NCBI GenBank assembly: GCA_017555875.1
Contig: JAFZFN010000029.1
Location: forward strand, 15,100-79,099
Direction: 5' to 3'
From: Bacteroidaceae bacterium
Lineage (GTDB): Bacteria > Bacteroidota > Bacteroidia > Bacteroidales > Bacteroidaceae
DNA length: 64,000 nucleotides
The translations under genes and the position numbers were made by a program. Numbering within the stretch: position 1 is the stretch's first letter; each line of letters starts with the position of its first letter. This document shows positions 5,113 to 54,513 of this stretch, in pieces. The notes under the pieces were generated by a model, which was given only the letters and a program-made list of their open reading frames with translations, had not been told where the DNA came from and ran no database searches.

Positions 5113-8100
5113 TTAGTTAAACGAGTATTCTACCCCCTCTACGCTCTTGATGTAGCTGACGAGCTTGTTGGTGGCGGTGATTTTGCATGTCTTCGATTTG
5201 AGGAGGACTTGATGCTGCCCCTCGCCTTCACGGATGTGGATGTGGAGGTCTGTCTTGCCGGGAGACTCCTTGATTAGTGTGATTAGGTCGTCAACCAGCT
5301 CTTCGCTCAGGTGCTCGGCAAGGATGGTGATGGTCATCGACTGCAAGAGGGTGTCCTTGACATCGGGGAGGAGCTCGACGGAGCCTACCTTGAGTTCATA
5401 GGTGTCGCCTACCTTGCCATAAAAGTTGCGCGGTGTGATGCGGCCACGGATAAAGAGGAAATAGCCCTCTTTCATGTAGTTGCTCCATCTCATCCAATCG
5501 TCGCCAAATAGGGCTACTTCGTAGGTACCTGAAAAATCCTCTATCTTGGTGATGCCGAAGGGCTTGTTGGTCTTGGTGAAGGCACTGCGTGTACCTGTTA
5601 CGACACCGCCAAGGGTGACATCGCGCTCCTCCTTCTTGTTCAAGACCTCGGGCATCTCTGCCAGATGTAAGGAGCATACGTCCTCGAGGATGATGCGATA
5701 ATCGTCGAGTGGATGGGCTGAGAGGTAGATGCCTACGAGGTCGCGCTCCTTGTTGAGTCGCTCGATGGTGGACCATGCGGGCACCTCTTCAGGTATCTTG
5801 GGGCGGGCAATAGCATCGGTCATGCTGGCCATGCCGAAGAGCGAGTTCATGGCTTGGGCACGCTCGGTCTGTACCAACGAACCGTAGCGGATAAGGATGT
5901 CGAGGAAGCCTTCCTTCTTGGCATTCTCGGCGAAGTAGTCTTCTCGCTTCATGTCGCTGAAGCAGTCAAACCCGCCTGAGAGGGCCAAGCACTCGAGGTT
6001 CTTGCGGTTGCAGGCCTGTAGGTTCACACGCTCTACAAAGTCGTAGATGTTCTTGTAAGGTCCATTGGCCTCGCGCTCACGGATGATGGCCTCTACGGCA
6101 CCTTCGCCCACGCCCTTTACACCTCCTAGACCGAAGCGGATGTCGCCCTTGGCATTGACTGAGAACTTCATGTAACTCTCGTTTACATCTGGTCCCAATA
6201 CATTGATGCCCATAGCCTTGCACTCGTCCATGAGCTTGGTGATTTCGTCGATGCGCGAGAGGTTGCGCGAGAGGTTGGCAGCCATGTACTGCGGGGGATA
6301 GTTGGCTTTGAGGTAGGCGGTCTGGTAGGCTACCCAGGAGTAGCAGGTGGCATGGCTCTTGTTGAAGGCATAGGAGGCAAACTTCTCCCAGTCGCCCCAG
6401 ATTTTGTCAAGGATCTTCGGGTCGTGACCATTCTTCTTGCCGCCCTCGATGAACTTGGGCTTCATCTTGTCTACGATATCCTTCTTCTTCTTACCCATCG
6501 CCTTACGTAGGGCATCGGACTCACCGCGGGTGAAGTCGGCCAGCTGGCGTGAGAGCAACATCACCTGCTCCTGGTATACGGTGATGCCGTATGTGTCCTT
6601 CAGGTACTTCTCCATACAATCGATATCGTACTCGATGGGCTTGCGGCCATGCTTACGGTCGATAAAGTCGGGAATATAGTCCATCGGTCCCGGGCGATAG
6701 AGCGCGTTCATGGCGATAAGGTCCTCGAAGGTTGATGGCTGTAGCTCGCGTAGGTATTTCTGCATGCCGGGCGACTCGAACTGGAAGGTACCGATGGTCT
6801 TGCCCTCGCAGTAGAGCTGATACGTCTTGGGATCCTCGATGGAGATGCTGTCGATGTCGATGTCGATGCCAAGGCTCTGCTTCACATTGGCCACAGCCTC
6901 CTTGATGATGGAGAGCGTCTTCAGACCGAGGAAGTCCATCTTGATGAGCCCGGTGTCCTCAATCACGCTGCCCTCGTACTGTGTTACGAGGAGCTTCTCG
7001 CCCGTTTCCTTATCGTCTGCCGTGCTCACAGGCACCCAGTCGGTGATGTCGTCGCGACAGATAATAGTACCACAGGCATGCACACCAGTGCCACGCACGT
7101 TGCCCTCGAGCATCTTGGCATACTTGATGGTATCGCGTAGCACGGGGTCGGGTGATGTCTCGGCCTCCTGCAGTTCGGGGATGGCTTCGATGGCATTGGT
7201 AAGGTTGAGTTTCTTGTCGGGGAGCTTGTCGGGGATGAGCTTGCAGAGGTAGTTGGCACGGTCGAGTGGTAGCTTCTGCACACGAGCTACATCCTTAAGC
7301 GCCATCTTGGTCGCCATGGTGCCGTAGGTGATGATGTGGGCTACCTTCTCGGCACCATATTTCTCGGTTACCCAGCGCAACACCTCACCGCGGCCATCAT
7401 CGTCGAAGTCCACGTCGATATCGGGGAGCGAGATACGGTCGGGATTGAGGAAACGCTCAAACAGCAGATCATACTTGATGGGGTCGATGCGCGTAATCTC
7501 CAGGCAGTAGGCCACGGCCGAGCCTGCGGCCGAGCCACGGCCCGGACCCACGGATACGCCCAGCAAGTTGCGGGCTGCCCAGATGAAGTCTTGCACGATG
7601 AGGAAGTAGCCAGGGAATCCCATCGTCTTCATGATGTGGAGCTCGAAGATGAGGCGGTCCTCAATCTCGGGAGTCATCACGGGGTAGTACTTCTTGGCAC
7701 CATCCATCGTGAGCTTCTTCAGGTAGTCGGCTTCGAGCTTGATGCGGTAGAGCTTGTCGTAGCCGCCGAGCTTCTCGATCTTGGCCTCTGCGTCGGCCTG
7801 AGAGAGTACCACGTTACCCTTTTCGTCTCGGGTGAACTCATTGAAGAGGTCCTCTTCGGTATATTGTTTGCGGTACTCCTCCTCGGTGCCGAAGTCAGTG
7901 GGAATCTCGAAGTTGGGCATGATGGGTGGATTGTCTATAGAGTAGAACTCCACCTGGTCGCATATCTTCACCGTGTTGGCTAGGGCCTCGGGAATGTGTC
8001 CGAAGATAGCGTTCATCTCTGCCGTCGTCTTCATCCATTCCTGTTTGGAGTAGAGCATGCGGGTGGGGTCGTCGAGGTCCTTGCCCGTAGAGAGACAGAT

Positions 8101-9111: not shown

Positions 9112-10737
9112 TTGACTATGGCCAAGAATGGAACGTTGCTTTGGATTGATGACGAGATAGAACTTCTTCGCGCTCACATCCTCTTCCTCAAAGGGAAAGA
9201 CTATGAGGTGGACACTGCCACGAACGGGCGGGATGCGCTGGATCGTTGCCGTGAACGTAGTTATGACCTCATCCTGATTGACGAGAATATGCCTGGCCTT
9301 ACGGGACTAGAGACGCTTACGCTCATCAAGGAGGTGCAGCCTACAGTGCCCGTAGTGATGGTGACCAAGAGCGAAGAGGAGGATATCATGAATCAGGCCA
9401 TAGGTGCCAAGATTGCTGACTACCTCATCAAACCCGTCAACCCTAACCAGATACTCCTGACGCTGAAGAAGAATATCCACAAGAAGGATCTCATCACCGA
9501 AGCTACCAATACCAACTATCAGCAAAATATGGGGCGCATCGCTATGCAGATCAATGATGCGGATACACATGAAGACTGGGCAGAGGTGTACAAAAACCTC
9601 GTCTATTGGGAACTGGAGCTGGAACATGCTGACAATAATATGGGCGAGATGCTACGTCAGCAGAAGGAGGAAGCAAACAACCTTTTTGCAAAATATATAA
9701 GGAGGAATTATGAGAGTTGGTTTAGCTCCCTCCTTAGCTCCTCCAAAGGAGATGGGGCTAGGGCTCGCGGAGCAAATCTTCCCTCTTTTGGGGGACAGAG
9801 TGACCAACCGCTGATGTCGCCACACCTTTTCCGTGACCGTATATTCCCCTTACTTGACCAAAAGGAGAAAGTGGTGCTCATCGTCTTCGACAACTTCCGC
9901 TATGACCAATGGAAAGTCATCAGTCATGAGCTTAGTGGAGAGTTTTCTTTCGAAGAAGAACTCTACTACAGCATTCTCCCCACTGCTACACAGTATGCTC
10001 GCAACGCCATCTTCTCGGGGCTCATGCCCAACAAGATAGCAGAGATGTTTCCCGAACTTTGGGTCGATGAGGATGAAGAGGAGGGTAAGAATCTCAACGA
10101 GGCTCCACTCATACAGACACAGATAGATCGCTATCGTCGTCGCGATAGTTTTGCATATCATAAGATTAATGATGCGCAGGGAGCAGAGCGACTAGTGTCG
10201 CAGTTCCGACAGTTCGAAAATAATGACCTCAATGTCGTTGTGGTTAACTTTATCGATCTCCTGAGCCATGCTCGTACAGAGTCGAAGACGCTGCGCGAGC
10301 TTGCTGCCGATGAGGCTGCCTATCGTTCGGTGACACTCACTTGGTTTCGCCACTCGCCGTTGCGTGAACTTTTCAGTCTCCTAGCCGAGAGCGATTATAA
10401 GGTGGTTATCACAACCGATCATGGCAGCATACGGGTCAATAGTCCCATCAAGGTGGTAGGTGATCGCAATGTGAATACCAATCTGAGATACAAATTGGGC
10501 AAGACTCTCAACTATAATCCTCGTGAGGTCTACGAGATAAAGGACCCGCGCAAGGTGTTGCTCCCGTCACCCAATGTGAGCACAGCTTACATCTTCGCTT
10601 GGGGAGACAACTTTTTCGCCTATCCTAACAACTACAATTATTATGTCTCTTACTACCGCGACACCTTCCAACACGGAGGCATCTCGATGGAGGAGATGAT
10701 AGTACCATTCATAACATTAACACCGAAGAAAAGATGA
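9112..10737 (+). CDS. porX: PorX-like response regulator with a CheY receiver and a PglZ/alkaline-phosphatase-like domain
   Basis: The receiver has the phospho-acceptor Asp context (LILIDENMPGLTG). The roughly 540-aa length and the C-terminal PglZ-like domain match the T9SS regulator PorX family. Confidence 0.7.
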   Translation: MTMAKNGTLLWIDDEIELLRAHILFLKGKDYEVDTATNGRDALDRCRERSYDLILIDENMPGLTGLETLTLIKEVQPTVPVVMVTKSEEEDIMNQAIGAKIADYLIKPVNPNQILLTLKKNIHKKDLITEATNTNYQQNMGRIAMQINDADTHEDWAEVYKNLVYWELELEHADNNMGEMLRQQKEEANNLFAKYIRRNYESWFSSLLSSSKGDGARARGANLPSFGGQSDQPLMSPHLFRDRIFPLLDQKEKVVLIVFDNFRYDQWKVISHELSGEFSFEEELYYSILPTATQYARNAIFSGLMPNKIAEMFPELWVDEDEEEGKNLNEAPLIQTQIDRYRRRDSFAYHKINDAQGAERLVSQFRQFENNDLNVVVVNFIDLLSHARTESKTLRELAADEAAYRSVTLTWFRHSPLRELFSLLAESDYKVVITTDHGSIRVNSPIKVVGDRNVNTNLRYKLGKTLNYNPREVYEIKDPRKVLLPSPNVSTAYIFAWGDNFFAYPNNYNYYVSYYRDTFQHGGISMEEMIVPFITLTPKKR

Positions 10738-17735: not shown

Positions 17736-18587
17736 ATGGAATTCTTTTCACAAGCGATACCACGATACTTGCTTACAAAGCGCAGCCTCACTATTATGGT
17801 GACTTCGGCTGCTGCTTTTGCATTCCTCTTTATCATTATATACAAGCCCTTCAATGTGGAGCATTGGGCAGAGGTGTCCCGATTCGTTTTTGTTGCTTGT
17901 GTTTTGGGTATTGTCTTGCTAGGTATGAGTATAGCCGCTATCAGTAGGGTGATTATGTGCTATTATGCCAAGAAGCATGCGGTTAGCTATCTGCAATATA
18001 TAGCATGGGTGTCTGTGGAATTGGTGCTCATGTCGGTAGCTTTTACAATTTGTTCTACGCTTACAGGGGTGCAACTTGATATCTGGGAAGCATTCGAGAA
18101 GTCTTTGCTCAATACTTCGCTCATTCTTCTCATTCCCTATATTGTCAGTATTACCGCTTTCACTTTGCAGGATCGCAATAATCGTTTACGTCAGATAGAG
18201 GATGATTATGACAAGGCCATGCAAGAGCGGGCCACGATAAAGAGCCTCATTTCCTTCTACGATGAGCGGGGTGAGCTGCAGCTCTCGGTTACGAAAGAGA
18301 ATCTTCTCTATGTCGAGAGCGCGGACAATTATATATATATATGGTATATGAAGGGAAACCTTCCCAAAAAGTTGGTGCTTCGCAATACGCTGAAGCGCAC
18401 CTCCGAACTCTTGGCCGACACCAATGTGATGCGTTGTCATCGTGGCTATATGGTCAATATGGAACAGGTGAAGGTGCTCCGTCGAGAGAAGGATAATTTT
18501 TATCTGGAATTGGGCATTGAAGGAGTAAAAGATATCCCCGTGTCGAAGACTTATGGCGATACGGTGCTCAAGTGGCTTTCGATGTAA
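17736..18587 (+). CDS. Membrane protein with a C-terminal LytTR DNA-binding domain
   Basis: Four or five N-terminal TM helices precede a LytTR fold (LLYVESADNYIYIWY...VMRCHRGYMVN). Confidence 0.75.
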   Translation: MEFFSQAIPRYLLTKRSLTIMVTSAAAFAFLFIIIYKPFNVEHWAEVSRFVFVACVLGIVLLGMSIAAISRVIMCYYAKKHAVSYLQYIAWVSVELVLMSVAFTICSTLTGVQLDIWEAFEKSLLNTSLILLIPYIVSITAFTLQDRNNRLRQIEDDYDKAMQERATIKSLISFYDERGELQLSVTKENLLYVESADNYIYIWYMKGNLPKKLVLRNTLKRTSELLADTNVMRCHRGYMVNMEQVKVLRREKDNFYLELGIEGVKDIPVSKTYGDTVLKWLSM

Positions 18588-19790: not shown

Positions 19791-20672
19791 ATGCACAAAG
19801 CAGGATTTGTAAATATCGTGGGAAACCCCAATGTGGGTAAGTCGACACTGATGAACAAGTTTGTCGGTGAACGTATCTCCATAGCCACCTTCAAGGCACA
19901 GACCACCCGTCACCGTATCATGGGTATTGTCAATACGGAGGACATGCAGATTGTCTTCTCCGACACACCTGGTGTGCTCAAGCCTAACTACAAGCTGCAG
20001 GAGTCGATGCTTCAGTTCTCTGAGTCGGCTTTGCAGGATGCCGATGTTCTCGTCTACGTGACCGACGTAGTGGAGAAGATCGACAAGAACCAGGACTTCC
20101 TCCAGAAGGTACAGCGCATGGATGTGCCCATCCTCTTGCTCATCAATAAGATTGACATGAGCAATCAGAAGGAGTTGACCGCTCTCGTCGAGGAGTGGCA
20201 CGAGCTGCTTCCTCAGGCAGAGATTATCCCCATCTCGGCATCAAACAACTTCAATGTTGACGTGGTGCTCCGCCGTATCAAGGATCTGCTGCCCGATAGT
20301 CCTCCCTTTTTCGACAAGGATCAGCTGACCGATAAGCCCGCCCGCTTCTTCGTCACCGAGATTATCCGCGAGAAGATACTCCTCTATTATGACAAGGAGA
20401 TACCCTACGCCTGCGAGGTGAGTGTCGAGCAATTCAAGGAGACTGAGAAGAACATCCACATCAATGCTATCATCTATGTGGAGCGTGAGTCTCAGAAGGG
20501 CATCATCATCGGCAATCAGGGCAAGGCGCTGAAGAAGGTGATGACCGAGGCACGCCGCACATTGGAGCAGTTCTTCGGCAAGAGCATCTTCCTTGAGACG
20601 TTTGTGAAAGTAGATAAGGACTGGCGCAATTCAGACAAGGAGCTGCGCAGTTTTGGATATAACCTTGAATAA
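19791..20672 (+). CDS. era: GTPase Era
   Basis: G1 motif GNPNVGKST, the DTPG motif, and a C-terminal KH domain. Confidence 0.95.
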   Translation: MHKAGFVNIVGNPNVGKSTLMNKFVGERISIATFKAQTTRHRIMGIVNTEDMQIVFSDTPGVLKPNYKLQESMLQFSESALQDADVLVYVTDVVEKIDKNQDFLQKVQRMDVPILLLINKIDMSNQKELTALVEEWHELLPQAEIIPISASNNFNVDVVLRRIKDLLPDSPPFFDKDQLTDKPARFFVTEIIREKILLYYDKEIPYACEVSVEQFKETEKNIHINAIIYVERESQKGIIIGNQGKALKKVMTEARRTLEQFFGKSIFLETFVKVDKDWRNSDKELRSFGYNLE

Positions 20673-20760
20673 AATTAGGAGTTAGGAATTAGAAATTAGG
20701 AGTTGAAACTCCACGAAGCCCACCGGGGCAATAAAATTCCTAATTCCTAATTCCTAACTT
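20673..20760. repeat. Inverted repeat with 7-bp tandem heptads (TTAGGAA/AATTCCT x3) in the era-der spacer
   Basis: The arms aattaggagttaggaattagaaattaggagtt and aattcctaattcctaattcctaactt enclose a short ggagttgaaactcc hairpin. Confidence 0.6.
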
Positions 20761-26337: not shown

Positions 26338-26385
26338 CTTATTGTCTGAGGACCCAGAGAATTCACAATTCACAATTCAAAATTC

Positions 26386-28023
26386 ATGTATACCTTCTTC
26401 CTATATATCATAAAGGTATCGCTCACGCTTGCTGCCTTTTACCTTTTCTACAAGCTTCTGTGTAGCCGCGACACGTTGCATCGGTCCAATCGCGTACTGT
26501 TGCTCTCTCTACTCATCCTGTCAGCGGTGACGCCTTTCATCTATGTCGATCTCGGGATGGATAACCAAGAGGCTAACGCAGCATTTGAGGAGCTGACTAT
26601 GCCCATCGATCCTGCCGAAGGCGTGACGGGCGAAGCAGTCACGAGAGGGCGTGTAGTCCCCGTTCTGTGGCAACAAATTCCGTGGCGCTCCGTGCTCGTA
26701 GGGGCCTACCTCATCGGTCTTGTGGTGTGCCTTGTGCGCTTTGCCTCCTCGCTCCTCTCCATCGTGCGACTCATCAGGGGGAGCCAGCGTCAAGTGTTGC
26801 CCGACGGCATCATCCTCGTCACCCACACCAAGGACTATAGTCCCTTCTCGTGGATGCGCTACATCATCGTATCAGAGCGTGACCTCTGCGACAATCGGGA
26901 TATGATCCTTGCTCACGAACGGGCACATATCCGCCTCGGCCATTCGTGGGACCTGCTCTTTGCCCAACTCTGTGCCACCATGCAGTGGTTCAACCCCGCC
27001 GCATGGCTACTGAAGCGCGAGCTCGAGGCCATCCACGAATACGAGGCCGACAGCGCCACGCTACGCCAAGGCTTCGACGCACGGCAATACCAGCTGCGCC
27101 TCTTCGAGGCTGCCTCTGGCATCAAATACAGCTCATTCACCAATAACTTTACTAATTGTTCCACTAAAAAACGTATTATTATGATGATGAAAAAACAAAC
27201 CAGCCCGTGGGCATTGCTCAAGGCTCTGTATGTGCTCCCCGTAGCATTCGCTGCCGTAGCGGTTATCTCTTGCACCTCGCCGAAGGAGAAGAAAGACAGC
27301 GGTCACCTTTCAAATGTTATGGTACATGGCGAAAATCCGCTTCTCGTATTTACCTTTGAAGACAGTACAGAACTTAACATTCAAGGCAAACAACTCAACT
27401 ACGACGGCATGCCCGACTTTGATTATCTCAAACCATGCGGACTAACGCCCGAGAATATCAATAGCATTGACGCTCTGCAAAGTGAAGAGGCCAAAGCCCT
27501 ATATGGGGAGAGAGGTTCCAACGGAGCCATCCTGTTCGGAGTCAAGGGGAAGACAGCCAAAGATGTATTCTCCTCCCTCTCCGATTATGCCGCAGAGACT
27601 GGCAGCGAAGAGCCACTTAAGGTGAACCTCAAGAAAACCTCCAAAGGAGGAGTAGAAGGAGGCACACCGTTCACCTATGAAACTACAACCATCAAGCAGG
27701 AAGAGGATGAGGTCTTCCAAGTCGTAGAAGAACAACCTATGTATCCTGGCGGAATGCAAGAGCTGATGAAGTATCTGCAAAAGGAGATGAAGTACCCCAA
27801 GGAGGCACAGGACAAAGGCATCCAAGGCCGCGTCATCGTTCAGTTCGTCGTGAACAAGGACGGCAGCATCTGCGAAGCCAATGTCGTGAAAAGTGTAGAC
27901 CCGCTGCTCGATGCCGAAGCCTTACGTGTTATCAACGCCATGCCCCACTGGACACCCGGCAAGCAGAGAGGACAGGCGGTCAACGTGCGCTTCACTCTCC
28001 CCCTCACGTTCCGGTTGCAATAA
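26386..28023 (+). CDS. BlaR1-like M56 peptidase fused to a TonB C-terminal domain
   Basis: M56 N-terminal TM region with the HELAHIRLGH zinc motif. The C-terminal 90 aa form a TonB_C domain nearly identical in pattern to those of the 23914 ORF. Confidence 0.8.
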   Translation: MYTFFLYIIKVSLTLAAFYLFYKLLCSRDTLHRSNRVLLLSLLILSAVTPFIYVDLGMDNQEANAAFEELTMPIDPAEGVTGEAVTRGRVVPVLWQQIPWRSVLVGAYLIGLVVCLVRFASSLLSIVRLIRGSQRQVLPDGIILVTHTKDYSPFSWMRYIIVSERDLCDNRDMILAHERAHIRLGHSWDLLFAQLCATMQWFNPAAWLLKRELEAIHEYEADSATLRQGFDARQYQLRLFEAASGIKYSSFTNNFTNCSTKKRIIMMMKKQTSPWALLKALYVLPVAFAAVAVISCTSPKEKKDSGHLSNVMVHGENPLLVFTFEDSTELNIQGKQLNYDGMPDFDYLKPCGLTPENINSIDALQSEEAKALYGERGSNGAILFGVKGKTAKDVFSSLSDYAAETGSEEPLKVNLKKTSKGGVEGGTPFTYETTTIKQEEDEVFQVVEEQPMYPGGMQELMKYLQKEMKYPKEAQDKGIQGRVIVQFVVNKDGSICEANVVKSVDPLLDAEALRVINAMPHWTPGKQRGQAVNVRFTLPLTFRLQ

Positions 28024-28414
28024 AGAGTCGTTCCACTAACCAAGCGGCACCGCATTGTCTTCATGGTGCGGTGGCAATGGTCGGGCACATCCTTCGAGGG
28101 TGTGCCCGCGTGCTGTTCGAAAGGGCACTCGGCGGGAGAACGCCGAGGCCATACGGACAAAAGTCAGGGAGTGGCGCTGCCAAAGGGTATTCAAGTATCC
28201 CCGATGTGTACCTTTTGTATACGATATGTGTACAAATATGTGTACAAATTCATGACGTAACTATCATGACGTACAGTGGATTACGCGGGCAAAAGTGTAC
28301 ATTTCCTTTTTCCGCCTTTTCCTTTCGGCTTTCGAGGGCATTACGGACATGAAAGAGTGCGATTGTATATTTCGGAGCTATTCATATCCTTTGTTTTACA
28401 AAGCATGGAGTTTT

Positions 28415-28520
28415 TCTGGTCGCGAATAGAATGTCTTCTGACCGCGAATAGAAAACATTCTGCTCGCGAGTAGAAATATTTCTGACCGCGGGTAGAAAAA
28501 CTTTTGAATCTATAGAAAAA
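28415..28520. repeat. Iteron-like array: four exact-phase 22-bp direct repeats (TCTGnYCGCGrrTAGAA) plus a degenerate fifth
   Basis: Copies start at 28415, 28437, 28459 and 28481. A partial copy starts at 28503. Confidence 0.8.
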
Positions 28521-28953
28521 ATCTTGTCACACAATGAAAATCAAGAGCTCGAAGGCAGTTCCGGGATTGTTCTATGGTGCGTCCTGTCAACTTCTAACAT
28601 GCATGAGAACAATCATGCCCCTGCGGTGTACTGCGAATTGGCCAATCACCGCCACTTCGGACGGGAAGCGCAGGAGTAATGATGCAAAACCTGGTGCCGA
28701 GAAGATATTGTACACATCCGATGACATAATCTGCTGAAGATTCGGGGATTGGCTATAAAAATTGTACACAAATTTGTACATAAAAAGGGTGCAAATCGGG
28801 TGGGTTGTCGTCACTCACCATGAGAGGACGAGTCGTACATCCATCCCACCTGTCGATGGAGGCGCAAATAAAAAATTTTCACTACCTTTGTAACTTTCGG
28901 GGCTTCTCTCCGTCTTAAGGGTAGAGAGTAATTACTGCACAAACACATACAAG

Positions 28954-29439
28954 GTGACGCACGAAGAATTCAAAAGGCGGTTTATGCCGTTGCAGAGCAT
29001 GCTGTATCGCGAAGCATATAAGGTGCTGGGCGATGCGTTCGAGGCTGAGGATGCCGTGCAAAACATGTATGTGCGTCTGTGGGAGCAGAAGGAGGAGCTA
29101 GGACACATCGTGTCGCCCGAGGCCTATTGCCGCACGATGCTCAAGCGCATCTGCATCGACCGTTGGCGGAGGATGAGGGCGCGGGCCGAGGATGTGGAGC
29201 TCATAGAAGAGATTGTCGATGCCAATGCTCCACCCGACGCAGAGCGTGAGGAGACGGCGGAGTTTCTCGAACATTTCCTCGCCAACCTCCCCGACCGACA
29301 ACAACGGGTGATGCGGATGACGATGCAGGGAAACACGGCGGAGGAGATTGCCGAGGCCACACGATTGAGTGTGGGGAATGTGAGGACCATCGTGTCACGC
29401 ATGAGGCAGAGATTTAAGGAATTGTATTATAAACGATAA
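28954..29439 (+). CDS. ECF-type RNA polymerase sigma factor
   Basis: Sigma-70 region 2 (YREAYKVLGDAFEAEDAVQNMYVRLW) and region 4 (RQQRVMRMTMQGNTAEEIAEATRLSVGNVR). Confidence 0.85.
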   Translation: MTHEEFKRRFMPLQSMLYREAYKVLGDAFEAEDAVQNMYVRLWEQKEELGHIVSPEAYCRTMLKRICIDRWRRMRARAEDVELIEEIVDANAPPDAEREETAEFLEHFLANLPDRQQRVMRMTMQGNTAEEIAEATRLSVGNVRTIVSRMRQRFKELYYKR

Positions 29440-39079: not shown

Positions 39080-39170
39080 CCTGTACTAGAAAATCCAAGA
39101 ATCCCTAGATAGTCTAGGTTTTCTAGATAGTCCTAGGTTTTCCTAGCTAGCCCTAGGCAATCCTATCCCT
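39080..39170. repeat. CTAG/CCTAGG-rich tandem repeats (ctagatagtc-ctaggtttt x2 and variants)
   Basis: Tandem units of about 20 bp, related to the array at 46352-46437. Confidence 0.6.
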
Positions 39171-46351: not shown

Positions 46352-46437
46352 GGTCTTTAGGGTCTCCTAGGACTACTTAGGATTGCCTAGGACTTCCTAG
46401 GACTTCCTAGGATTTCCTAGATCTCCTAGGGCCTAGC
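46352..46437. repeat. Tandem array of about 8 decamers, CCTAGGAYTT
   Basis: ctcctaggactacttaggattgcctaggacttcctaggacttcctaggatttcctagatctcctagggcctag. Confidence 0.85.
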
Positions 46438-50014: not shown

Positions 50015-50884
50015 GGTATATCTGTCTTTTTAGGTTCATTCCTACTTTACGCTACAAACTTATACAAAAAATGTGATTCCACCTTCCAGTTAGCCAAAAA
50101 AGTGATTACCCACAGATGGTATTTCCTCGCATCGCGTCAGCAAATTCGTGTGCGTAAACAAATTCATGGCTGATTCGCGGGTAATTCATGGACATTCATG
50201 TCCAAAAGAAAAAAGAAAGCGATTTTTTATGAATAAATATCCAGCGGCCCAATCCTATATACGTCAATGAAGCGTGCCTCCCATGTTGAATATACACTTC
50301 CTATTTGCCGAAGCCTATCGGCAACGCTGCCGAAGCGCATCAACCACGTTGCCGATAGGCAACAGCAGCGCTGCCGTTGCCCATCGGCAAATAACTTTGC
50401 AGGCAAAGCATACATCGCTTCGCTTGTATGTGCCTCCGGATGAGGGCTGCGAGCGTTAGCTATGCAGACTCTACGCTCTCTGCGCGGACACCGACTGACA
50501 GGTGAAATCGTACGCAGTGTCCGCCATTAGGCAGTAGATAGTCAGCGTGTTGACCCATGTTGGCGGACGGTGGCAGGTGGAAAAGCCGATGACACTATCG
50601 CGTAGCGAGGACTCGCGAGTAAACGTCGATTCCGTTACATAAAAAAATCACCCGAACCGTTGCGTAAGTGCCAAACAATTAGTACCTTTGCGCCCGAAAA
50701 TTGCTCTCCCCGCAAGGTGAGATGCATGTGCTGATGATGTAAATGTTTGTGTTATAATATGTTATAATGCGAACCAATGCTGTGAAAAGACGTAAAGATG
50801 TAGGCGGAAAAGGAATCAAAGAAGGAATCAAATAGGAATCAAATTTATTATTTTTTTATTACCAATTTTATTAATTAATCATTT

Positions 50885-53800: not shown

Positions 53801-54469
53801 GGCAACGTGATGAGAACAGAAGGTAGCGGTGCTATCAACTACTGGGCTGGTGAGACCAACGAGACTTGGTACCTCATCCCCGTGACCGAACTCGAAATCT
53901 CTATCAACGACTTTGCTTCTATCTGCTTGCCTTTCGACGTAGAGGTTGAGGGTGCTCAGGCATACGCAGTGACTAGCACAACCGCTACTGCTGCTATCTT
54001 GACTGAAAAGGCTGACATCCCCGCAGGTCAGGGTGCTATCCTCGCAGGTGATGGTGTAGCTACATTGAAGTTCACAACTGCTGAGTCTGACTGGACTGCA
54101 AACATGCTCAAGGGTTCTTTTGTAAATACCTACGTTGCAGGCTCTGCTTATGTATTGGCAACCAACGGTGGTGAGACAGTAGGTCTCTACAAGGCTAAAT
54201 TGAACAGAACAGAGGCTGGCGAAAAGGTTGAAGAGGGCGGTACACACTTCCTCAACAACGCTAACAAAGCTTACCTCCCCGCTCCTGTAGCTGAGGGTGC
54301 TGCTCCTGCTATGTTCGTACTCAGCCGCGGTGGTGAGGATGAGGATGCTACTGGCATCGACCAGCTCATCAATAACGGTGAGGTAGTAATCTACGACCTC
54401 GCAGGCCGTCGCGTAGAGAAGATGGAGAAGGGTGTCTACATCGTTAACGGCAAGAAGGTGGTTAAATAA
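50885..54469 (+). CDS. Large T9SS-secreted surface protein with internal domain repeats and a C-terminal sorting domain
   Basis: Signal peptide. Repeated modules of about 100 aa (FKFNG...E.GEKYT...F...V.SC). The C-terminus VVIYDLAGRRVEKMEKGVYIVNGKKVVK is T9SS-CTD-like. Confidence 0.75.
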   Translation: MRKKNTMLFASLLACVGVMQAQPEVGKEYRIKEANRKLYLTIQGYNGQGSEGSHGSVPLLEKALINADQVWTLEATDIENVYNLKSKSGYYIVQGGWNVDAYNNNANQAEVQFVSNGDTYKIKNMNNGNQWWKSQNVGGTWYPFCDAGESAAASWVLEEVPADEFKADVTLTITYKFNGNNVSESAVEKTPGAEYTIPAFDYTKIVSCKIGEEEQTVTDGACIITVPEAAATVTVELATNFPFEVSTDYETATWYVLQIRSNNKKYVVRSESAPYANTTTTPTTEDALWAFVGNPFDGIQVLNKAAGTGKTLGLDGNNGVMLEGATTWNITKGNGGFLLRVGNEGNKYFHDYGSKLQIWDDGSAAGDPGSAFVVTSEAEMISLATTAMGLASKLDTYAEASYYTYPNAAVAEAKATLQGVATPTDFLTALNAKATVESVQAALNTAGKSGAPAAGDFIMLKNKARQKFMTDNGEQAKVVTNTKGLNALWEVVAGENGVKLKNCETGRFLGNITQSTPTMTIAAGEEGAAEFVWENKSEVYAVFKPVGGGNDQYGHESWENVVGWYTDAEATLWVASNVRPLSVVFKFNGETLESKTINGYAEQGEKYTVVSPYDFTVVGSCTVNGEALEAVEGVYSFVVDGAAEVVVEIEENLPFKTATITDGQFAANTEWYVIKHREGNNIWLYDAADATANVSVKSQAFDIYNADHLWCFTGNVVDGFKIHNKAVAASFSLSNAEPAVLVDGNETTWDIEVATEAFGANDNRLAFKYREKVNSYEVNYANLQGGKLKGWWDRDLGSVSCLISVSAEIEKAVAAWSEWFNVEGIVGSIKDTDELQTLIEAYLAAPSQATEDAVEEYIANAEKVALTAGYYFIKATGVGNNASWYASYGNNNSDFMAVATETPGAKHMWSFEAVEGEDGYKLQACNLGKYAQLANASTNGGKASSIAADYENGYKFVFEDKGVAKFTVKDGNGNVMRTEGSGAINYWAGETNETWYLIPVTELEISINDFASICLPFDVEVEGAQAYAVTSTTATAAILTEKADIPAGQGAILAGDGVATLKFTTAESDWTANMLKGSFVNTYVAGSAYVLATNGGETVGLYKAKLNRTEAGEKVEEGGTHFLNNANKAYLPAPVAEGAAPAMFVLSRGGEDEDATGIDQLINNGEVVIYDLAGRRVEKMEKGVYIVNGKKVVK

Positions 54470-54513
54470 TTCTGAATTTTGAATTCTGAATTCTAAAGCA
54501 CAGCAAAAATATT

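Follow-up and report, generated by a model that had tools for sequence, protein, structure and literature searches.

A 22-bp-phased palindrome array in a Bacteroidales genome as the leader module of a decayed HU-HIG gene cassette

In this study, a short array of phased palindromes located upstream of an ECF sigma operon was analyzed within a 64-kb stretch of DNA (the window, meaning the whole stretch analyzed). Sequence comparisons showed that this array is the leader module of a decayed HU-HIG gene cassette and not of the sigma operon. The cassette (~580 bp, 28214-28795) lies between a blaR1-like gene and the ECF sigma operon and contains an internally deleted HU-HIG gene, reduced to a promoter region followed by the array, 7 initial codons and the stop region. 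The window is a segment of a Bacteroidales chromosome with housekeeping genes (era, der, L19, gyrB, dnaE, lon and mur genes). Upstream of the array there are a blaI-like gene and then a BlaR1/M56-TonB_C gene ending at 28023, and downstream the ECF sigma gene (28954-29439), followed by three ORFs without a Pfam match.

The array (given without strand) is composed of four 18-bp dyads of the form TTCT-N3-CGCG-N3-AGAA, located at 28414-28431, 28436-28453, 28458-28475 and 28480-28497. Their starts (28414, 28436, 28458 and 28480) follow an exact 22-bp phase and they are separated by 4-bp A/T-rich spacers. The sequence reads TCTGGTCGCGAATAGAA from 28415, TCTGACCGCGAATAGAA from 28437, TCTGCTCGCGAGTAGAA from 28459 and TCTGACCGCGGGTAGAA from 28481. 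The exact 22-bp spacing, already reported in the initial annotation of this DNA, was confirmed by the sequence, by Tandem Repeats Finder (TRF; period 22, 3.9 copies, 28413-28497) and by pattern counts compared with shuffled sequences. The pattern proposed there, TCTGNNCGCGRRTAGAA, has 4 exact matches in the window, all within the array; with up to 2 mismatches, there were 5 matches versus 0.43 expected, a number reached in 0 of 100 shuffles. With a detector for four 18-bp palindromes at 22-bp phase, the array was the sole match in the 64-kb window, and no match was obtained in 5 shuffles. The copies described earlier are therefore real, while the better unit is the 18-bp dyad, which begins one base before each of the starts given previously. 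A partial fifth copy had also been proposed. A box, TTTTGAATCTATAGAA, does exist at 28502-28517 (plus strand), but it is not a full unit: it is shorter, lacks the CGCG centre and corresponds to a conserved leader box between the array and the start codon (GTTGAAACCATAGAA in loci L027, L033 and L060, and TCTGAAACTATAGAA in L069).

The array was also compared between four strains, i.e. the window and three contigs (L001, L066 and L068; 93–96% nucleotide identity) in which the whole intergenic region is kept. Only 2 of the 85 array positions vary, versus 13 of 103 (12.6%) and 9 of 62 (14.5%) in the adjacent flanks (Poisson estimate, P ~0.001-0.004), and both variable positions belong to the loosely symmetric inner positions of the dyad (5-7 and 12-14). 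The dyad symmetry, the exact phase and this low variation are consistent with a phased array of protein sites. To that extent the earlier proposal of cooperative binding sites is upheld, but neither the gene nor the regulators assigned to them are.

The array had been placed in a 900-bp leader of the ECF sigma operon. Orthologous sigma loci, gathered via protein homologues, contradict this assignment, since only ~85-90 bp upstream of the sigma gene are conserved across species. Homology to L003-L008 and L067 is limited to ~28864-28952, which is the sole intergenic part conserved in all sigma orthologue loci. This promoter-proximal region (28864-28953, plus strand), which is outside the element and is given as context, contains the -7 box TACCTTTG at 28883-28890, a perfect match to the Bacteroidetes -7 consensus (TAnnTTTG). 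The sigma operon therefore has its own short leader. The L002 locus retains the operon (sigma protein 86% identical) and the promoter-proximal DNA (95% identical), and there the array and the left part of the region are missing. The operon is also kept in L003-L005 and L067, behind short, unrelated upstream regions without the array, and in L006-L008 a 345-aa RAYT-like gene occupies this intergenic position.

Several other features of these loci may be mentioned. In L002 (2640-2740), three short segments of the window (28093-28126, 28290-28339 and 28549-28580) are found in inverted order and orientation, which may reflect either an assembly artefact or a genuine rearrangement between short repeats (e.g. 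TTCGAGGG). In L006 (3285-3362), and also in L007 and L008, the 3' end of the RAYT-like gene runs into four copies of CATCGCGATG at an exact 22-bp phase, located 38 nt upstream of the sigma -7 box; the geometry is that of the window array and the sequence is different. GC-rich, REP-like hairpins (CTCGGCG-N6-CGCCGAG) are present upstream of the RAYT-like gene in L006 (1882-1903, 1969-1990 and 2143-2167), and one copy is found in the window, just past the blaR1-like gene (28127-28150).

The HU-HIG relic in the window is a 67-codon ORF (MKIKSSKAV..., 28534-28737, plus strand), the ATG of which lies 36 nt past the array. It was recognized by alignment with L069, which carries an intact gene of 216 aa. 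Two blocks are shared: 28362-28554 with L069 443-635 (82% identity), spanning the promoter, the array and 7 codons (MKIKSSK), and 28678-28788 with L069 1261-1371 (75% identity), spanning the stop codon, the downstream sequence and the right boundary cluster (see below). Relative to L069, ~625 bp of the ORF body is missing in the window. Two of the four strains (L001 and L068) differ by a frame-shifting CT indel at 28547 and therefore the relic is not coding; comparison of its ORF with Pfam and NCBIfam gave no match. The promoter of the relic (28363-28393, plus strand) is of the Bacteroidetes type and is also decayed. It consists of a -33-like TTGT (28363-28366) and a -7-like ATCCTTTG (28386-28393), which ends exactly 20 nt before unit 1, where the intact homologues have TTTG-N20-TA(T/C)CTTTG. 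An exact TAnnTTTG was looked for at this promoter and was not found (the consensus was taken from PMC7366714).

The cassette is bounded by two clusters of GTGTACAA motifs in inverted orientation. The left one (28214-28310, plus strand) forms an inverted repeat (I1) with 28759-28795 and has sites at 28226-28237, 28238-28249 and 28293-28302 (motif positions 28228, 28240 and 28295; spacing of 12 and 55 bp). The right one (28700-28795, minus strand) has sites at 28706-28717, 28760-28771 and 28772-28783 (motif positions 28709, 28763 and 28775; spacing of 54 and 12 bp) and follows the HU-HIG stop codon, as in intact cassettes. The motifs of the left cluster are invariant in the four strains. The same cluster is carried by L069 at 1290-1370, just past its intact gene, and the same composite (cluster, array, relic, cluster) is found in L039 beside unrelated genes.

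Clusters of GTGTA(C)AAAT (3-4 sites, 11-12 bp and ~55 bp apart), the type that bounds the window cassette, recur past gene ends in cassettes with HU-HIG and DUF3987 genes (e.g. L059 1532-1621, 4135-4255 and 5378-5471, as well as L013 and L030), and candidate roles are the ends of a mobile unit or a terminator-like function. Two other interpretations of the clusters were rejected. An invertible promoter between the inverted GTGTACAA clusters is not indicated, as all four array-bearing strains have the same orientation; L002, compared for the same purpose, contains some inverted segments, but deletions too. A BlaI-type operator was considered given the upstream penicillinase-repressor homologue and the likeness of TGTACA to TACA/TGTA boxes, but the clusters travel with the cassette without a blaI neighbour. 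In viral contigs, GTGTACAA-N3-5-GTGTACAA had at least 120 matches, about the number expected by chance for 16 specified bases. A scan for sigma-70 promoters and terminators was uninformative for a Bacteroidetes genome.

Homologues of a ~200-bp stretch that includes the array (28357-28554) were found in several rumen and hindgut MAGs, in unrelated genomic contexts. There, the ATG of the HU-HIG gene follows the array after 35 nt, and the 216-aa product (Pfam PF18291) begins with MKIKKSKHV. The gene is intact in L033, L051 and L059, and also in L069, while internal-deletion relics follow the array in L027 (68 codons), L060 (28), L015 (27) and L039 (83). Decay of the HU-HIG gene is recurrent (L027 5244-5450, L060 1474-1560, L015 ~6750-6831 and L039 1571-1822): both ends of the gene (the start codon with the codons next to it, and the C-terminal end) are kept, and the promoter-array module survives each time. 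In full cassettes, a DUF3987 gene (P-loop, primase-helicase-like) is divergent from the HU-HIG gene and adjacent to the array.

The layout of the intact loci is common to all of them: a promoter of the sigma-ABfr type (TTTG-N20-TAnnTTTG), 20 nt, four 22-bp-phased 18-bp palindromes and, ~35 nt further on, the ATG. In 12 subfamily loci, unit 1 follows the -7 box after exactly 20 nt, and in most the ATG is reached 35-38 nt past the end of the array; in the definition of the leader module, the HU-HIG coding sequence begins ~35-40 nt (up to ~110 nt) past the array. A metagenome scan with a HU-HIG alignment yielded 10 subfamily loci with enough upstream DNA to judge, and in 8 of these 10 a canonical -7 box precedes four or five palindromes at 22-bp phase, which differ by lineage (TTCTATTCGCGAATAGAA, TTCTAYCTGCAAGTAGAA, TTATCCCTGCAGGGATAA, CTACCTTCGCGAAGGTAG and TTACCCTCGCGAGGGTAA). 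Two more distant metagenome relatives have other repeat types, and no array was found within the 222 nt of upstream sequence of L075.

The layout is shared by four of five distant HU-HIG genes (25–29% identity, all above the Pfam threshold), with cultured Bacteroides finegoldii and Phocaeicola massiliensis among their hosts. The palindromes in these genes are TTATCA-N6-TGATAA, TAACCAC-N4-GTGGTTA and CACT-NN-AGTG, and the distance from the -7 box to unit 1 in the distant Bacteroides and Phocaeicola genes is 16-17 nt. The first of these palindromes is present four times in the leader of B. finegoldii WP_195399327.1, and the second four times in that of the P. massiliensis gene. In the leader of the fifth gene (L201), a single near-perfect palindrome (34-bp stem) takes the place of the four 22-bp units. 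This sequence (2690-2800) originates from pCACC737_3 of Bacteroides sp. CACC 737, where the gene is annotated as encoding a 48-aa hypothetical protein. In the searchable literature, no account of an association between arrays and HU-HIG or DUF3987 genes was found, and the gene-array pattern appears to be undescribed at the family level.

To define the array family, one genome per species (596 Gb) was scanned for AGAA-N4-TTCT-N3-CGCG-N3-AGAA-N4-TTCT (20 specified bases, ~1 chance match expected). This analysis revealed 57 stretches, nearly all from Bacteroidales MAGs; in viral contigs the pattern had no match. All Bacteroidales matches were 22-bp-phased arrays; the number of units ranged from three to six and was four in 47 of the 60 arrays. 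All but one of 61 arrays are intergenic, among assorted housekeeping genes, and the orientations of the flanking genes are random (++ 13, +- 11, -- 10 and -+ 10). Most genomes hold one or two arrays, and the window has one in 64 kb. The MAG CAMVJO01 (uncultured Prevotellaceae SRR8387718_bin.18) contains 39 intergenic arrays of TTCTCWWCGCGWWGAGAA units (loci L012-L065), with sharp ends, unrelated flanks, unrelated housekeeping genes as neighbours and a length of 84 bp for the typical four-unit copy. The initial annotation had raised the possibility of a common dispersed sequence without positional association with promoters. As regards dispersal, this holds at the family level (the 57 stretches, the 39 arrays in one MAG and the random flanking orientation), but the window-type copies do have a strict link to a promoter, albeit that of a different gene.

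No TAnnTTTG was found near the 39 arrays of CAMVJO01, so arrays can exist outside the leader context. Target-site duplications of at least 3 bp were absent from the 34 CAMVJO arrays tested. The copies are built from a limited set of half-site variants, recombined in different orders, and their contact blocks are conserved while other positions vary. Taken together, conserved contact blocks, a varied remainder and recombined units suggest selection rather than recent copying. One of the CAMVJO01 arrays is located 112 nt upstream of a divergent HU-HIG gene (L029).

The genes downstream of the homologous arrays scored 60-117 bits against PF18291 (cutoff 26.2). PF18291 is a domain of the HU/IHF fold, here combined with a C-terminal winged helix, and the HU-HIG protein matches HU/IHF structures. 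In the AlphaFold monomer, the C-terminal 60 residues form a confident winged helix (pLDDT 84-89), and the HU part is poor (mean pLDDT 57). The HU-HIG clade was defined by Burroughs et al. 2017 (PMC5499826), who considered the role of a sequence-specific transcription factor unlikely and described expansion in Bacteroidetes, rapid divergence and frequent gene decay, with no conserved genomic linkage reported. The array-downstream genes are bona fide members of that clade, while the window holds only a relic; what differs from the published account is a conserved cis-element (a promoter and four phased, lineage-specific palindromes) linked to the winged-helix subclade. A comparison of the recognition helix of the winged helix with the dyad sequences gave no clear pattern of co-variation; it is the N-terminal segment that co-varies, and the whole comparison is confounded by phylogeny. 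The winged-helix region of L059 and L070 is almost identical, whereas the dyad centres (CGCG vs TGCA) and the N-terminal segments differ. Either specificity lies outside the winged helix or the binder is another protein.

We consider it reasonably probable that the array is a leader/operator module of the HU-HIG gene, at which four dimers bind cooperatively and the HU-HIG protein regulates its own gene. Transcription would start a few bases past the -7 box, judging from the promoter consensus alone, and the dyads would then occupy ~+13 to +97. Each dyad would bind one dimer through the TTCT/AGAA blocks and the CGCG centre, with positions 5-7 free to vary. The two-turn phasing would place the four dimers on one face of the helix and so permit cooperative binding, and the bound dimers would block promoter escape or elongation, resulting in negative autoregulation. 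The most likely binder would be the HU-HIG protein itself. In the window, where the dyads are conserved despite loss of the gene body and mutation of the -7 box, the array is probably still bound by a paralogue encoded elsewhere in the genome. As the promoter is degenerate, the element may also be inert. Any effect on the sigma operon would be incidental (e.g. that of a roadblock or an insulator).

An action at the RNA level, in which a 5' UTR with four tandem hairpins or one long hairpin controls the stability or translation of the HU-HIG mRNA, seems unlikely. The array does lie between the -7 box and the ATG and hence is probably transcribed, some lineages have near-perfect palindromes with 7-8 bp stems (CTACCTTCGCGAAGGTAG in L072 and TAACCACGAAGGTGGTTA in L205), and in L201 the 34-bp stem occupies the same leader position. 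The pattern of mismatches points the other way. A sense-strand count over 54 distinct units gave 378 Watson-Crick pairs, 26 G·U, 37 A·C and 45 other mismatches, with no excess of G·U over A·C. Asymmetry is found mainly at unit positions 5-7, and the 45 transversion mismatches cluster at three consecutive positions in mid-stem. The lack of a G·U bias and the three tolerated mid-stem mismatches argue against a selected hairpin of RNA or single-stranded DNA. Moreover, the commonest CAMVJO unit, TTCTCTTCGCGTTGAGAA, has T-T mismatches, and the only Rfam matches were chance-level ones to miRNA (in Rfam 15, only tRNAs reached the gathering score over the window, and 28000-29000 had only these miRNA matches). 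The mismatch pattern favours double-stranded DNA sites, predicted for a dimer contacting the outer TTCT/AGAA blocks and the centre. It is similarly improbable that the array represents a dispersed REP/BIME- or MITE-like repeat, selfish or neutral, in which an 84-bp module spreads between genes with no regulatory role here. The dispersal described above (57 stretches, 39 sharp-ended arrays with unrelated flanks in one Prevotellaceae MAG, and intergenic positions in random orientation among assorted housekeeping genes) is what such a repeat would produce, and a RAYT-like gene, followed by the four CATCGCGATG units, is present in the same intergenic region of L006-L008. Nevertheless, window-type copies are of low number and fixed in the HU-HIG leader, the arrays lack target-site duplications, and hairpin complementarity is not maintained; conserved contact blocks within varied and recombined units also count against recent copying. 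The RAYT-like gene of L006 itself scores 47 bits versus an NCBIfam cutoff of 80 and carries a different array, and tblastn with its protein found no homologue in any fetched array-bearing locus.

The sites of an activator or response regulator (LytTR, AraC or PorX type), controlling the ECF sigma operon from a long leader, are a highly unlikely explanation. In their favour, the sigma gene follows 456 bp downstream of the array, on the same strand, the window encodes a LytTR protein (17736-18587) and a PorX-like regulator (9118-10737), and L006-L008 have a different 22-bp-phased array near the sigma -7 box. The operon is nonetheless retained without the array in L002, L003-L005 and L067, HU-HIG leaders in unrelated contexts share homology with the array and ~200 bp of surrounding sequence, and the motif occurs nowhere else in the window. 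The analogies with LytTR, AraC and Rep proteins drawn in the initial annotation call for direct repeats (as is typical of LytTR sites) ahead of a promoter, and are unfitting for an array of inverted-repeat dyads immediately past one. The least credible interpretation, to which we give almost no weight, is that of plasmid-type iterons or of the replication origin or centromere of an integrated element, with the GTGTACAA clusters as extra initiator sites. R6K-type iterons have a 22-bp period, which the array recalls; a divergent, primase-helicase-like DUF3987 gene stands beside it in intact cassettes, and repeated GTGTACAA motifs bound the cassette. The window, however, has a housekeeping context without a rep or partition gene, the array pattern is unmatched in viral contigs, and the units are palindromic, their number at the promoter being fixed at four. 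No turn in GC skew was seen at 28.4 kb, the skew being positive throughout the window, and therefore a chromosomal replication origin is also ruled out.

The preferred interpretation, a leader/operator module of the HU-HIG gene, has parallels in well-known systems. Like lambda OR/OL and the self-operators of TetR/MarR-type regulators, the array is made of dyad sites with helical phasing, placed at or just downstream of the promoter of a gene for a DNA-binding protein, and, as with self-operators, the sequence of the sites differs between paralogues while the layout is constant. Unlike them, HU-HIG arrays have four units with a strict 22-bp period over ~85 bp, and the presumed binder would combine the HU/IHF fold with a winged helix. 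In F sopC (where each tandem repeat contains a palindrome) and the 22-bp iterons of R6K, tandem phased repeats also provide one site each, and the array, by analogy with those of ParB/SopB or Rep, may be expected to nucleate a cooperative nucleoprotein complex; in contrast to these, it is chromosomal, short (four units) and tied to a promoter, with no partition or rep genes in the window. Plasmid iterons and oriV are characterized by a rep gene, an A/T-rich unwinding element, DnaA boxes and non-palindromic direct repeats, whereas the array has no rep gene among its neighbours, its units are palindromes and the GC skew does not switch. The likeness to REP/BIME elements and their RAYTs comprises short palindromic units, tandem clusters, intergenic dispersal, up to 39 copies per genome and the lack of target-site duplications. 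The differences are that hairpin complementarity is not maintained, that there is no GTAG-type head and no linked RAYT, that most genomes have one or two copies, and that the canonical copy lies in a gene leader. As for MITEs, which are defined by terminal inverted repeats and a target-site duplication, no such duplication was seen at the CAMVJO arrays; the cassette does have inverted GTGTACAA ends.

HU-HIG genes are among the most expanded and fastest-evolving families of DNA-binding proteins in gut and rumen Bacteroidales, and a cis-module with lineage-specific palindromes points to candidate recognition sites for each HU-HIG paralogue. HU-HIG modules explain a recurrent class of intergenic repeat arrays in Bacteroidales genomes, which might be mistaken for iterons, for CRISPR-like or MITE-like elements or, as was the case here, for the regulatory sites of a neighbouring operon. 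A bolder proposal, which we regard as possible but rather doubtful, is that HU-HIG winged-helix proteins are sequence-specific, each with a private four-dyad leader array, and that such arrays can detach and multiply chromosome-wide. If so, protein and repeat would be partners in the manner of RAYT-REP or ParB-parS, with possible roles in local chromatin organisation or silencing or in conflicts with mobile DNA, and continued binding by a paralogue encoded elsewhere would account for the persistence of relic arrays (e.g. that of the window). The window copy itself is a relic of modest importance, and the practical conclusion for the window is negative, as the sigma operon has its own short leader and the array is left over from an inserted cassette.

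Other repeats were also identified within the window. A second array with a 22-bp period is located at 50306-50390 (TRF, 3.9 copies), with dyads of the TGCCGA...TCGGCA type; Rfam gave no match in this region. It ends directly before a -7 box, TAACTTTG, at 50392, past which there is a GC-rich stretch of ~280 nt without an ORF of at least 80 codons, followed by the -7 box TACCTTTG (50683) and a gene of 1194 aa. Another short repeat family is represented by intergenic tandem arrays with a ~10-bp period, built on CCTAGG/CTAGG, at 39105-39165 and 46365-46429. Heptads are found in three places: four copies of AATTAGG facing three of CCTAATT form a long hairpin between era and der (20670-20757), four copies of AATTCAC abut the start codon of the blaR1-like gene (26360-26386), and four copies of AATTCTG follow the 1194-aa gene (54468-54494).
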